Source of the DNA: a virus
Taxonomy: Duplodnaviria > Caudoviricetes
IMG/VR virus record: IMGVR_UViG_3300022917_000017
Span: 1-43,923 of that record
Strand: one strand, 5' to 3'
DNA length: 43,923 bases
A program made the translations under genes and the position numbers. The notes under the pieces are model-generated. The model was not told where the DNA came from. It did no database searches and worked only from the letters and a program-made list of their open reading frames with translations. How positions within the stretch are numbered: the stretch's first letter is position 1; every line of letters starts with the position of its first letter. Of this stretch, positions 4,258 through 10,445 are shown piece after piece.

Positions 4258-4760
4258 CTTCCTACGGCCAGCACCTCCATGGCTGGCGCGTTCATGAACT
4301 GCTCGGCCATTTCTTCGGCTTTCTCGAAATCGAACTCTCCGTCGTTAGTTTGCGGTTGCGCGTACACTGCGCAGTACAAAGCGTAGCGCCGGATCTGATC
4401 GTTAGCGTTGAGTGTTGCGGTGCTTGCCACGTCTTCGCGTATGTATTGGTACTGACCTATGGTTTCGAATCCGAGGTCCTTCGGCAGATCGTAACCCAGA
4501 ATGCTTGTCGGAACACCTTTCGGTATCTCAGTGGTAGTGAGGAACGAAAGGCAGATCAGAAGCTCGTCCAGCGTTCCGGTCTCCGCACGTGCGTTACCGA
4601 TGGCCTCCGAAGGCTCTTCCAGGAACACCCCGAATATCTTCAGCCAATCGTCGTTGCACTCGTTTATCGCCAGCAACTGACGAAAGGTTACCTCCTCCCA
4701 CCGAGTGGGGATTTGAACCGTCTTGATCTTCTTGCCTAGTCGTACGTTGAATGTCTGCAT
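4047..4760 (-). CDS. Tail assembly chaperone (gpG-like)
   Basis: IPTRWEEVTFRQL and DLGFETIGQY motifs; overlapping -1 frame. Confidence 0.7.
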   Translation of the reverse strand: MQTFNVRLGKKIKTVQIPTRWEEVTFRQLLAINECNDDWLKIFGVFLEEPSEAIGNARAETGTLDELLICLSFLTTTEIPKGVPTSILGYDLPKDLGFETIGQYQYIREDVASTATLNANDQIRRYALYCAVYAQPQTNDGEFDFEKAEEMAEQFMNAPAMEVLAVGSFTLLKLIGLSRPINDVSRKEITLTKKLLLVIRAWLIFTVSTVRLWLWRKRLGAQRKSFITGMFTGSTRD

Positions 4761-4769
4761 CGTGTGTGT

Positions 4770-6137
4770 TTAAAATACCTGCATAGCCGGTGCCCCCTGT
4801 GGGGTAGTACTCAAAAGCACGTCAAAGTAAGCGCGCATGATGTACGTATCCAAATCGTCGGGGGAATGACCGAGCATTTCTTTCATAATTTCTTTCTTGA
4901 TGATCCCCTGTTTCATGTCGGAATCTACCGCTTTGCGCTTTAGCTGTTCCAGTTCGAGGGTAATCTTGTCCCGGACCTCGCCTTCCTGCGGGTCGTAAAT
5001 CGCCGCTGCGTTCACAATCTCCGCAAGTTTAAAAGCGCATTGGCTCTTCAGCATGTCGAAGTTAGCCCGCACAGTCTGGCCCTGAAGATCCCGTTCGTAG
5101 GTCAGGAGAGGCAATGACGCCGCGATGAATCCGGAGCAGTTCAGGATGTCCTTAACACCTCCGCCTACGCCGTCCTCGTCAACGATCGTGCGCGACATGG
5201 GTATCTGGTAGGCATTGGCCAGTTCGCGGATACTGGCGGCTGTATCGGTCACTGTGGACTTCGTGAGCACCACCCGCTTAATGCAGCGCCAGCCGGACCA
5301 AACCCTTATGATCGTCTTGTCTTTGCCCATGCGGGCGATGTCGGCGGATATGTAACCGATACCTTCAGGCACGTGCTGGTTATGGAAAATGTCGAGTATG
5401 TTGTTGTACTCGCACATGGTCGCAGGATCGTCGTCAAACTCCCAGTTTCCTTTTAACAGGCGTTCCTTCTCGTTGGTTGACAAAACCCTCTGTAGGTTCT
5501 CCAAATACCCAGCAGCAAGCTTTTTGTTATCCTCCGGTAGGGCCTGAACGAAACGCTTCCAAGCGTCTAATTCCCCGTTCTTGTTTGGCTTGTAGTACGA
5601 TCGATAGAGGTAGTTCTTAGATGGATTGCATGTTTGAAGTAGCTTACCAGACAACCCAAAGTCATCATTTTTCCAACGTCCTATTGTTGCGGCTAGGTTG
5701 TTCTTTGCAGCCTCTTGTAACTCGCCTGCTTCCTCAATCCATCCGCGAGTCATCTGCATGGACCCAAACCTCTGGAACTGTTCATCCCCAGGCTGATACG
5801 CCGCCTCAATCAAAAAAACCTTAGATTTGTTGTGGAGGGTGTAGAAGTTGTCTTGACCATCGTATTTGTAGTACGAAGGTCCTAAGCCCCAATGCCTGAA
5901 CACCTCATCGATAGACGGCTTAGTGTATTTGCGTAGGTCGTTAAGCTTCTTTCTTGCGATGAAATACTGTGTCTCCGGGTAGATCAAAGCGTCTCCGAAT
6001 ATCAACGAGACGCCCAGATATGACTTGCCCGATCCCTTACTGCCACCGTAAACAATATCCGACACCGAGTCGTCAACCCAATGCCGGCAAACCTCCTTCT
6101 GCTTCTCGTTCCCGTTGGTGTCGAATGTGATCTTCAA
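4770..6137 (-). CDS. terL: Terminase large subunit (PBSX-like)
   Basis: Walker A YGGSKGSGKS, Walker B WIEEAGE, TCNP coupling motif, nuclease ADIARMGKD and SPDDLD. Confidence 0.95.
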   Translation of the reverse strand: MKITFDTNGNEKQKEVCRHWVDDSVSDIVYGGSKGSGKSYLGVSLIFGDALIYPETQYFIARKKLNDLRKYTKPSIDEVFRHWGLGPSYYKYDGQDNFYTLHNKSKVFLIEAAYQPGDEQFQRFGSMQMTRGWIEEAGELQEAAKNNLAATIGRWKNDDFGLSGKLLQTCNPSKNYLYRSYYKPNKNGELDAWKRFVQALPEDNKKLAAGYLENLQRVLSTNEKERLLKGNWEFDDDPATMCEYNNILDIFHNQHVPEGIGYISADIARMGKDKTIIRVWSGWRCIKRVVLTKSTVTDTAASIRELANAYQIPMSRTIVDEDGVGGGVKDILNCSGFIAASLPLLTYERDLQGQTVRANFDMLKSQCAFKLAEIVNAAAIYDPQEGEVRDKITLELEQLKRKAVDSDMKQGIIKKEIMKEMLGHSPDDLDTYIMRAYFDVLLSTTPQGAPAMQVF

Positions 6138-7949: not shown

Positions 7950-8328
7950 GCCTCCAGCGGAAATTTGTGAAACGGCCGTTAACTATCTGCCCGTATGGTT
8001 TCTGCGGTGTTATGGATTGAATACCTGGATGCCCTGTGAAAGCATGCACGTAGTTGAATTGCGTCGGAATCCGATGGCATAATCGCCCAAACTCCAAAGC
8101 TTCATCGGAAGACATTACGATCGGCTCCCCTTTCTTCCTCTGCTCGTCCTGGTAGGCGCGGAGGTCAATCCATAAGTCTGGATTTATAACTGGAAAATAC
8201 TTATCGACATTTTGATACGTATACACGTGCACATCGCCAGGTAGAAGACATGCACGCATACCTTCGTCATATCGTTGTTTTACATATTCGTTCCACTCAC
8301 CCACGTCTCCCTCCTTTACCCTCATCAA
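7915..8328 (-). CDS. Hypothetical protein
   Basis: 137-aa ORF; start may lie slightly downstream. Confidence 0.6.
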   Translation of the reverse strand: MMRVKEGDVGEWNEYVKQRYDEGMRACLLPGDVHVYTYQNVDKYFPVINPDLWIDLRAYQDEQRKKGEPIVMSSDEALEFGRLCHRIPTQFNYVHAFTGHPGIQSITPQKPYGQIVNGRFTNFRWRHGHGPKGGSNG

Positions 8329-8410
8329 TGTACAAATCGGAAGTCATAACTACGTAAATAATGTAAGCAAATGCTGCTGTGAAAACTGAAGGAATAATTA
8401 ACCAATACAT
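8297..8410 (-). CDS. 37-aa TM micropeptide
   Basis: MYWLIIPSVFTAAFAYIIYVVMTSDLYIDEGKGGRRG; A-rich leader. Confidence 0.5.
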   Translation of the reverse strand: MYWLIIPSVFTAAFAYIIYVVMTSDLYIDEGKGGRRG

Positions 8411-8433: not shown

Positions 8434-8569
8434 CGTAGACGTCAGGCTTCGAACCTGAATGCTACCTTAGACCTTCTCAGGCTCTCGGTCGAGGATGGCC
8501 ATTTTGCCAGGCCACATGAACCGTTCAGGTTGCTACCTTATAGTGTATAACCAATTCCACCACATCTAC
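8434..8569 (-). ncRNA. tRNA-like RNA with an ~84-nt structured insert in place of the anticodon/variable arms
   Basis: Acceptor GTAGATG/CGTCTAC, D arm GTG-GAATTGGTTATA-CAC, T arm TCAGG-TTCGAAG-CCTGA; no canonical anticodon arm and no CCA. Confidence 0.75.
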
Positions 8570-8624
8570 AAAACTAACCCGGGGCTTATGGTGACCTCTT
8601 CCTTAACACCGGTCCCCGGGTGGT

Positions 8625-8939
8625 CTACAGATTAACGCTGTAGCCCGTTATTTGATCCTGATTGTGGTCATGTGGGTACACGAAAGCTGAATCGATGCTA
8701 TGAATCCGTGTGTGGCCAATGCACGTACGTTGTAACCCATCGTCGGTTTCTCCTGGTGCCATGATGCCAACCTGAAGATCATACATCACCTTCTCGCGTG
8801 AGAAGATCACTTTCGTGACATGGCAGTTCCGGATTATCGGGTTGCTCTCCCCGAACTGTAAGCAAACCTCGCAACCAATATTATAGGCGCTTGGCAGATC
8901 CCATGTAGGGTTTACGGGTGGTTTAGTTGATTCATACAT
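8625..8939 (-). CDS. Hypothetical protein
   Basis: 104-aa ORF on the operon strand. Confidence 0.65.
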   Translation of the reverse strand: MYESTKPPVNPTWDLPSAYNIGCEVCLQFGESNPIIRNCHVTKVIFSREKVMYDLQVGIMAPGETDDGLQRTCIGHTRIHSIDSAFVYPHDHNQDQITGYSVNL

Positions 8940-9699: not shown

Positions 9700-10245
9700 A
9701 AAAAAATGCCTCGCAATGTGTAACCTAATTACTCCCATACCTACCCGATATGTGATGTGACTTATCGACCAGTCACCACCCGAGGCTGCACGAATCGAAC
9801 GTGTTTCGTCTTTAAAATAACCTGGTTTCTCTGGGTCGGCTATGCCAGGTCACATCACCCTTCTTCGCCATGCGCAAGGCCCGTGATGTATATTTTTAAA
9901 AAGTACCGGTTTTTGCGAGGTTGCCGGTGCCCCGTGGTTGTCCGTTTTCCCTGTGGGTTGGTCCGCAACCTGTGCCAAGAGACGGACCGAAGTCCGCCCG
10001 GGGTTTCACCGGCTAGCTCTTAACGTGTAGGTAAGTTGAATCGAACAACTGAACCGGCCCGGAACCGGTGAGATACCACTTCTCAATACCCACATTTTTG
10101 CCCTTTACTAGCCTTAGCCTCATGAACCACCGAAGTGGGATAGGGTGGCGGCAGGTTAGTCTTCTCACTCCCACCAGATAGTGTAACTGGCCGGCCTCCA
10201 TTACTGGACACCGCAGGCGGTGGAGTGTGTTATCTCCCTATCTAC
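9700..10245 (-). ncRNA. Cluster of structured non-coding RNA elements
   Basis: GC-rich stems separated by A/T linkers. Minus-strand cUUCGg loops at 9983-9996 and 10127-10138, a GUAA loop at 10197-10208, and a long-range stem GATAGGG/CCCTATC. Confidence 0.7.
10026..10093 (-). tRNA. Compact atypical tRNA-like element, possible anticodon CCG (Arg)
   Basis: GTGGGTA/TACCTAC acceptor, GAGA-AGTGGTA-TCTC D arm, ACCGG-TTCCGGG-CCGGT arm, AGTTG-TTCGATT-CAACT T arm; 68 nt, no CCA. Confidence 0.65.
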
Positions 10246-10410
10246 TTAATGCTTTAAAGAAAGTGCACCGCTGCAACGGTCACTATCCCGAATCTTCGAT
10301 GCCCATTTGTAACCGCGCGATCTGACTGCGGGGGTTAAGTTTTCAGCACCTCCGATTCTAAATTCGTTTACGTTTCGCAAATCACAGCCGTATGACCCCG
10401 TCTGAACCAT
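10246..10410 (-). CDS. Possible leaderless 54-aa ORF at the start of the leftward transcript
   Basis: ATG 4 nt after the -7 box; open to TAA 10246; could instead be RNA leader. Confidence 0.3.
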   Translation of the reverse strand: MVQTGSYGCDLRNVNEFRIGGAENLTPAVRSRGYKWASKIRDSDRCSGALSLKH

Positions 10411-10414
10411 GAAC

Positions 10415-10445
10415 CAAAGGTAAGAATTAAATTTATAAAGTCAAG
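10415..10445 (-). promoter_or_regulatory. Bacteroidota primary-sigma promoter (leftward)
   Basis: CTTG-N19-TACCTTTG. Confidence 0.8.

Follow-up and report, generated by a model that had tools for sequence, protein, structure and literature searches.

The window, by which we mean the entire stretch of DNA analysed (a 43.9-kb phage record of 43,923 bases), codes for terminase, head protease, portal, NinG, Erf and exonuclease proteins. Its large terminase has relatives in 21 annotated phage records, all of Bacteroides, Polaribacter, Flavobacterium, Cellulophaga, Phocaeicola or unnamed phages, and the sequence TACCTTTG fits the -7 promoter consensus of Bacteroidota (as given in the available part of PMC6847099); these two observations indicate that the host is likely a member of the Bacteroidota. 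The TACCTTTG promoter is likely the start of a leftward operon that holds the terminase genes and a 136-nt tRNA-framed RNA gene, which runs on the minus strand from 8569 to 8434, two genes downstream of NinG in the gene run toward the terminases (Table 1). A second promoter-like sequence, TAGTTTTG at 8576, was rejected: it has a G where the revised consensus excludes G, and it is absent from L002, the homologous locus described below. A protein search with the 62-aa neighbour matched only its own sequence.

The site of the element is an accessory slot, with clean gain and loss among relatives. The X8 contig joins 8415 to 8570 and the X6 contig joins 8426 to 8571, so that the element is skipped and both flanks are intact; at 8571 the X2 contig passes into another Leu-type D arm, of which 30 letters are visible. 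The terminator-like hairpin immediately upstream was not called by a terminator scan of the window. It forms part of a stretch of two conserved hairpins and a T-rich tail (8571-8648, minus strand) that is kept in relatives without the element and is a candidate terminator or attenuator of the leftward operon. At the place of the small downstream ORF, L002 has an unrelated, cysteine-containing ORF of 49 codons.

Table 1. Coordinates of the tRNA-framed RNA gene, its parts and neighbouring features in the window
Feature	Position	Strand	Observation
Whole tRNA-framed RNA gene, to discriminator G (8434)	8434..8569	-	homologues L002:5596-5741(+), L250
Acceptor 5' strand GTAGATG (8569-8563), pairs with 8435-8441	8563..8569	-	7/7 pairs; 3 both-sided changes in L002
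Acceptor 3' strand CGTCTAC (8441-8435)	8435..8441	-	7/7 pairs with 5' strand
Leu-type D arm; stem of 3 bp, loop of 12 nt including A14, A15, G18, G19	8543..8560	-	19/20 positions (8-27) same in L002
T arm TCAGG-TTCGAAG-CCTGA (loop TTCGAAG)	8442..8458	-	5/5 pairs; 1 both-sided change in L002
U48	8459..8459	-	U in 139/141 class members
Predicted 9-nt single-stranded linker at site of would-be anticodon arm; most of repeat copy 1 inside	8534..8542	-	RNAalifold consensus; invariant in 3/3 sequences
Insert (putative cargo), predicted three-way junction P1/P2/P3	8461..8533	-	23/23 insert pairs kept in 3/3 sequences; 2 one-sided, 0 both-sided changes
Predicted closing helix P1, partly repeat copy 2 (8460-8469)	8533-8527 with 8467-8461	-	RNAalifold
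Insert arm P2	8523-8486	-	predicted
Insert arm P3	8485-8469	-	predicted
Context: likely Bacteroidota-type -7 promoter element TACCTTTG at 10422	10415..10422	-	same element in L002 at 4101
Flank: GC-rich hairpin (8620-8578) and T-rich tail just upstream of element, terminator-like	8571..8620	-	X8 and X6 cover 8570-8634, skip element
Flank: 37-codon hydrophobic ORF, start 23 nt after discriminator, below usual length cut-off	8297..8410	-	behind conserved AAACCCAGAA motif

An earlier note on this DNA had described a 7-bp acceptor stem, a D loop and a T arm here without assigning a strand; all three are present, on the minus strand, and the D loop is of the leucine type. U48 is presumably the partner of A15, as in the Levitt pair of leucine tRNAs, and CCA is not encoded after the discriminator. 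The D and T arms are 84 nt apart, as that note had it, though the hairpins it named in this interval are predicted only; it was also right that the anticodon arm is absent, but the insert stands in for the anticodon and variable arms together. Such an RNA cannot decode. The known Rfam family that had been considered as a possible identity was not found: Rfam scans of the window, by gathering threshold and by E-value, give no match at the element, ARAGORN makes no call there, and BLAST of the element against annotated phages returns short D-arm matches only. The minus strand folds with a z-score of -2.15 (7 of 200 shuffles are equally good) and the plus strand with one of -0.5.

Among 33 loci found via the terminase, an elbow script recognised the element in one, L002, whose terminase is 79% identical to that of the window and whose long flanking matches have 70-84% DNA identity. 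A metagenome pattern returned seven loci, namely two with no difference from the window in the 100 nt compared, the close variant L250 and four chance matches. Three patterns for further members of the insert family in viral contigs led to L002 only, and a D-arm pattern run over 10 records of terminase relatives matched twice, in the record of L002 and in the provirus L451, which has a different insert. The X4 contig carries the element with two internal substitutions and may share its source with L250, and X1 may come from the source of the window itself. In all, three sequences from two independent lineages were found for the window's insert family.

Covariation in homologues, proposed earlier as a check, is present: between the window and L002 there are four both-sided changes, three of them at acceptor pairs and one in the T stem. 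In all three sequences each of the model's 38 pairs is preserved (100% of 114 cells), a figure equalled by 6 of 500 shuffles, which with so few rows form a weak control. Of the 84 aligned insert positions 73 are the same in both phages, as against 8 of 14 in the acceptor strands, and the insert's changes fall in loops, fall in a 1x1 mismatch within P1 or preserve pairing. As only three sequences from two independent lineages were found, this conservation of the insert could reflect recent transfer.

In the best fold the insert is closed as a three-way junction beside the T arm; this junction is predicted to exit the frame next to U48 in the manner of a variable arm. The insert contains a 10-nt direct repeat (8531-8540 and 8460-8469), and RNAalifold builds the closing helix P1 by pairing the end of the first copy plus ACCT with the second copy. 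Both bases of the single mismatch in P1 are changed in L002 and one pair goes from C-G to U-G, which is compatible with this helix; a local hairpin that uses the first repeat copy fits the data nearly as well. Because no insert pair is changed on both sides, the fold of the insert is a prediction rather than a demonstrated structure, and on its own the insert folds modestly (z of -1.6 in the window and -1.2 in L002).

The repeat lies where the earlier note placed it, but its first copy begins 2 nt inside the insert, and it is thus not the exact boundary that had been suggested. A repeat of at least 10 nt arises in 4 of 2000 dinucleotide shuffles of the element, in what is a post-hoc test. The alternative pairing of AACCTGAA with TTCAGGTT of the T arm does occur in the minimum-energy fold of the window copy, with a pair probability of 0.68, and reaches 0.99 in L250; by the nearest-neighbour model the fold with the T arm opened (-45.6) is more stable than the constrained tRNA fold (-39.7). 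L002, by contrast, has no repeat longer than 6 nt, and its probability of the T-arm pairing is 0.0, so that neither the repeat as an insertion boundary nor the switch through the T arm envisaged before is a conserved design.

A search of the phage, on both strands, for an antisense target of the insert gave no match reaching 12 nt, and the ATG frame in the insert that might constitute a small ORF or a tmRNA tag is shifted in L002 and not conserved. An excision test contradicts an intron or an interrupted tRNA, since no single excision restores a canonical anticodon arm in the window or in L002; deleting what lies between the two repeat copies leaves 13 nt, which speaks against a repeat-bounded insertion.

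The element belongs to a large class of insert-type Leu frames. A viral pattern made of the Leu D arm followed by T occurs in about 1,400 stored viral stretches, as estimated from 6 of 64 parts, and returned 121 matches, of which 12 were unparsed and the rest gave 96 distinct frames with the T at position 26: 77 are insert-type (one of them, L200, probably mis-parsed), 18 are canonical tRNA-Leu and one (L173) has a group I intron. The control pattern, with A, C or G instead of T, occurs in about 8,800 stretches (estimate from 1 of 64 parts) and returned 127 matches; 17 were unparsed or at an edge, and the 108 distinct frames divide into 81 canonical and 27 others, which by eye comprise 4 short canonical frames, one intron (L446), 2 with an anticodon stem and 20 left. 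Prokaryote genomes supplied 74 loci and 67 parsed frames, 31 of them insert-type; 18 of the 31 carry genome names that we take to belong to the Bacteroidota, cultured carriers such as Dysgonomonas, Sphingobacterium and Parabacteroides among them, with the reservation that binned genomes may hold stray phage contigs. From two strict patterns the abundance of the class extrapolates to roughly 1,100 plus 1,600 stored viral stretches.

Many members sit in the nin regions of Bacteroidota prophages. When 59 of the 85 ORFs neighbouring 21 prokaryote loci were scanned, a PHROG match was obtained at 19 loci, and Nin, recombination, anti-repressor or terminase genes stand beside 9 of the 21. A member also occurs, unannotated, immediately ahead of NinG in the cultured Bacteroides phage BS-TP2. 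A description of the class was not found in the literature searched, which largely left out older and subscription papers, including the original T5 and T4 RNA work; the accessible part of PMC4810235 likewise holds nothing on it.

In the 77 viral insert-type frames the acceptor is fully paired (7/7) in 74, the T stem (5/5) in 75, and U48 is present in 75, while 44 different acceptor sequences occur; an anticodon stem is kept in 7 of the 77 against 6.8 in shuffles, which is not above chance. Pooling, which leaves out L173, L446 and L200 and includes loci selected by an AAGGT pattern, yields 141 insert-type frames out of 291, with U48 in 139, A73 in 113 and inserts of 14-236 nt that form 122 clusters, none of which resembles the window's insert (best local score 10). 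The inserts fold somewhat better than shuffles (mean z of -0.74, with 55 of 71 below 0; downstream control -0.10), and their last helix ends within 2 nt of U48 in 82 of 121 cases against 34-55 in shuffles. An Rfam scan of 20 class loci gave matches to the general tRNA model only.

Inserts and acceptors are mixed across the class. One insert family is common to five acceptor stems that differ at up to 6 of 7 positions, and shows both-sided changes at 5 insert pairs; conversely, a single acceptor sequence is found with 21 insert clusters, and L364 combines the window's acceptor 5' strand with an unrelated insert of 107 nt. Acceptors differ at 3 or more positions in 4 of the 13 multi-member insert families, the other 9 being without such mixing. 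The remaining 109 of the 122 clusters are singletons, for which reason a free spacer fits as well as many different cargos. The best-sampled putative cargo is a 111-119-nt insert family of gut phages (L128, L131, L175, L188 and L203), in which stems covary, A-rich loops are invariant and GGTG may pair with CACC at long range. Two armless frames of 69 nt, L001 (2467-2535, minus strand) and L063 (1463-1532, minus strand), have 19 nt between the D and T arms and start with the AAGGTAGCA of the window's insert; they were located by searching for this shared motif, which none of 329 unselected frames carries.

The both-sided changes in the acceptor and T stems, together with a class of 141 frames that has U48 in 139, support the view, drawn from comparison of sequences, that the element is a tRNA-like non-coding RNA under selection and probably not a decaying pseudo-tRNA. 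With class II tRNA-Leu (RF00005) it shares the 7-bp acceptor, the 3-bp D stem, the GG of the loop, A15/U48, the 5-bp T stem and the TTCRA motif, and some class members score as RF00005, the window copy falling below its threshold; it differs in having no anticodon arm and no U33, and the insert holds no partner for positions 27-31 of an anticodon stem. A73 is the discriminator that serves as an identity element for LeuRS. The discriminator here is variable, being G in the window and L250 and T in L002, and aminoacylation is not required in this family. RF00028, the group I intron model that L173 and L446 match, has no match in the window.

tmRNA likewise lacks an anticodon arm and carries a long insert below a tRNA-like top half, but it is about 350 nt long, has the alanine identity pair G3-U70 and a tag frame, and is without a D stem. 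The element is 136 nt long, has A3-U70 and a D stem, and shows neither a conserved reading frame nor an ARAGORN call, and the exclusion of tmRNA in the earlier note stands. The bacterial Y RNAs of the YrlA type are circularly permuted, with the T arm before the D arm; the order here is acceptor, D arm, insert, T arm, acceptor, and there is no Rfam match. The allo-tRNAs have a different acceptor geometry (according to the available part of PMC5389517).

The closest annotated precedent is T5 RNA1 (AY543070.1 30501-30644), annotated as a "tRNA-like stable RNA with unknown functions", in which a middle of 80 nt is likewise framed by a Leu-type D loop (GAATTGGTAGA), a T arm and paired ends; it too has no CCA encoded at the end of the stem and no Rfam match. 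Unlike the window RNA, it retains a 5-bp anticodon stem and a variable-arm hairpin, and it lies within a tRNA cluster directly before RNAI, whereas the window RNA stands alone in a nin-region operon with an unrelated insert. In the excision test three excisions give T5 RNA1 a canonical arm, against none for the window and L002. T5 RNA1 (L251 3502-3645, minus strand) can be described as a tRNA-Leu(UAA) whose anticodon arm is interrupted by 40 nt, and a single excision of these restores the canonical arm. The species 1 RNA of T4 (rnaC, AF158101.6 70908-71046) is similar in length, at about 139 nt, and has a T arm near its 3' end, but lacks a Leu-type D arm at the 5' end of the sequence as recorded and is part of a tRNA cluster. 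The accessible parts of PMC3014915 and PMC9697503 describe T4 RNAC and RNAD as stable late RNAs of unknown role, and the tRNA-like stable RNAs of T4 and T5 as without a known job for decades. The window RNA and its class are of a related but distinct design; calling the element a tRNA-like RNA, as was done earlier, is supported, but "novel" is too strong a word given that T5 RNA1 is annotated in GenBank and has the same Leu-type elbow.

A further parallel is the engineered tRNA scaffold of Ponchon, Dardel and co-workers, in which acceptor, D and T arms similarly surround another RNA; when foreign RNA sits in the anticodon stem, E. coli processes and protects the resulting molecule (PMC3753655, available part). 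This scaffold is artificial and its insert extends the anticodon stem, whereas the helix of the window's putative cargo is predicted to exit beside U48.

We regard it as an even proposition, resting on sequence comparison, that the element is a host-processed tRNA frame for a structured cargo RNA: the elbow positions are conserved, the parts used in decoding are gone, RNase P and RNase Z could recognise what is left, and the same minimal frame serves foreign RNAs in the laboratory. This reading is also favoured by the varied combinations of insert and acceptor stem within the class. Bacterial RNase P reads the acceptor-T stack. The human enzyme does so too, and where the gene does not encode CCA, RNase Z cleaves behind the discriminator (both in the accessible part of PMC10424219). 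The element would be transcribed within the leftward operon from the promoter near 10420, its 5' end would be cut by host RNase P and its 3' end made by trimming or by RNase Z, and the excised, stable RNA would display the folded insert. Inserts might be exchanged when phages recombine within the constant D and T arms, plausibly with help from the phage's own Erf and exonuclease, and the insert would have an accessory job, most likely the binding of a host or phage protein.

An alternative of rather low probability is that the elbow itself is the active part, a decoy that ties up a host defence protein which binds or cuts tRNAs, with the insert as mere filler that removes the cleavable anticodon loop. 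The nearly invariant D and T arms beside so many insert lengths and clusters agree with this, as do the existence of the armless 69-nt forms, the gain and loss at one site, which would fit an arms race, and the frequency of A73; yet the window's insert was retained while its acceptor turned over, another insert family has covarying stems, and a frame without an anticodon loop would presumably offer anticodon nucleases little. Conservation of an 84-nt insert, which no cut site needs, also tells against the idea, in our opinion unlikely, that the element punctuates the leftward polycistronic transcript as an RNase P/RNase Z site, which would set the nin-region messages apart from genes further downstream and create a new 5' end for the small gene that follows, with the excised RNA as a by-product. 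Its position alone between a terminator-like hairpin and an ORF that starts 23 nt downstream would suit such a mark, and class members do occur singly between genes of prophage operons; however, X6 and X8 delete the element cleanly and keep both flanks, and an ORF starts at most 40 nt after canonical Leu tRNAs (40 of 121) about as often as after insert-type frames (51 of 125).

A conformational switch, in which ACCU(GAA) would alternate between the first repeat copy (the local hairpin), the second copy (P1) and the T arm and so turn the tRNA shape and its processing on or off, strikes us as improbable. The window copy offers all three partners, the predicted minimum in it and in L250 is the T-arm form, and the local hairpin and P1 are both fully paired in the three sequences; but in L002 the first T-stem pair is changed on both sides while ACCTGAA has no matching change, no ligand or trigger is evident, and the energy model that favours the T-arm form omits tertiary elbow contacts and modifications. 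There is only a very slight chance that the element is a dead or interrupted tRNA-Leu, either a pseudogene with a mobile insert and a 10-nt target duplication or an intron-containing pre-tRNA: against the repeat near both ends of the insert and the true group I intron tRNA-Leu genes (L173, L446) met in the same searches stand the excision test, the compensated stems and the lack of a match to an intron family.

The host-processed frame can be extended to the class as a whole, though here our view is tentative and on balance doubtful. Phages, chiefly those of Bacteroidota, may run a cassette system of RNA effectors, in which a constant leucine-tRNA frame would serve as a processing and stability tag and as a recombination handle, while hundreds of folded cargos (decoys, aptamers or anti-defence RNAs) are swapped like accessory genes, the window's predicted three-way junction being one of them. 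The class has been missed or mislabelled by tRNA finders, and the members in cultured phage BS-TP2 and in prophages of cultured Bacteroidota make the choice between frame and cargo directly testable. Should the inserts prove functional, they would form a natural and as yet unexplored stock of phage RNA effectors, and the frame would be ready for use as an expression scaffold in Bacteroidota.

Several other structured elements were noticed in the window or in L002. A compact tRNA-like element at 10025-10093 (minus strand), which ARAGORN calls as tRNA-Arg(ccg) and which is below the Rfam threshold, has a palindromic, GC-rich anticodon arm and is skipped in X2 and X8. A third tRNA-like element of about 103 nt (9781-9883, minus strand), with the T-loop TTCGATT and paired ends, is skipped in X8 and includes an 18-nt stretch (9843-9860) that is 83% similar to 8505-8522 of the studied insert. 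Upstream of the 62-aa gene, 36 nt (9898-9933, minus strand; L002 4433-4468) are 94% identical between the two phages, and an H-type pseudoknot can be drawn there by eye (GGGG with CCUC/CCCC, ACCGG with CCGGU). A conserved structured non-coding stretch at 10245-10360 (minus strand; L002 4609-4729, 76% identical) lies within the long leader after the promoter; it is covered by the contigs of X2, X3, X8 and X12 and has no Rfam match. Finally, at about 4729-4799 (plus strand) L002 has a circularly permuted tRNA look-alike, again without an Rfam match, in which a T arm, a short stem and the D-loop-like GGTAGAGC are closed by GGGG/CCCC, in what we take to be the order of the YrlA Y RNAs.
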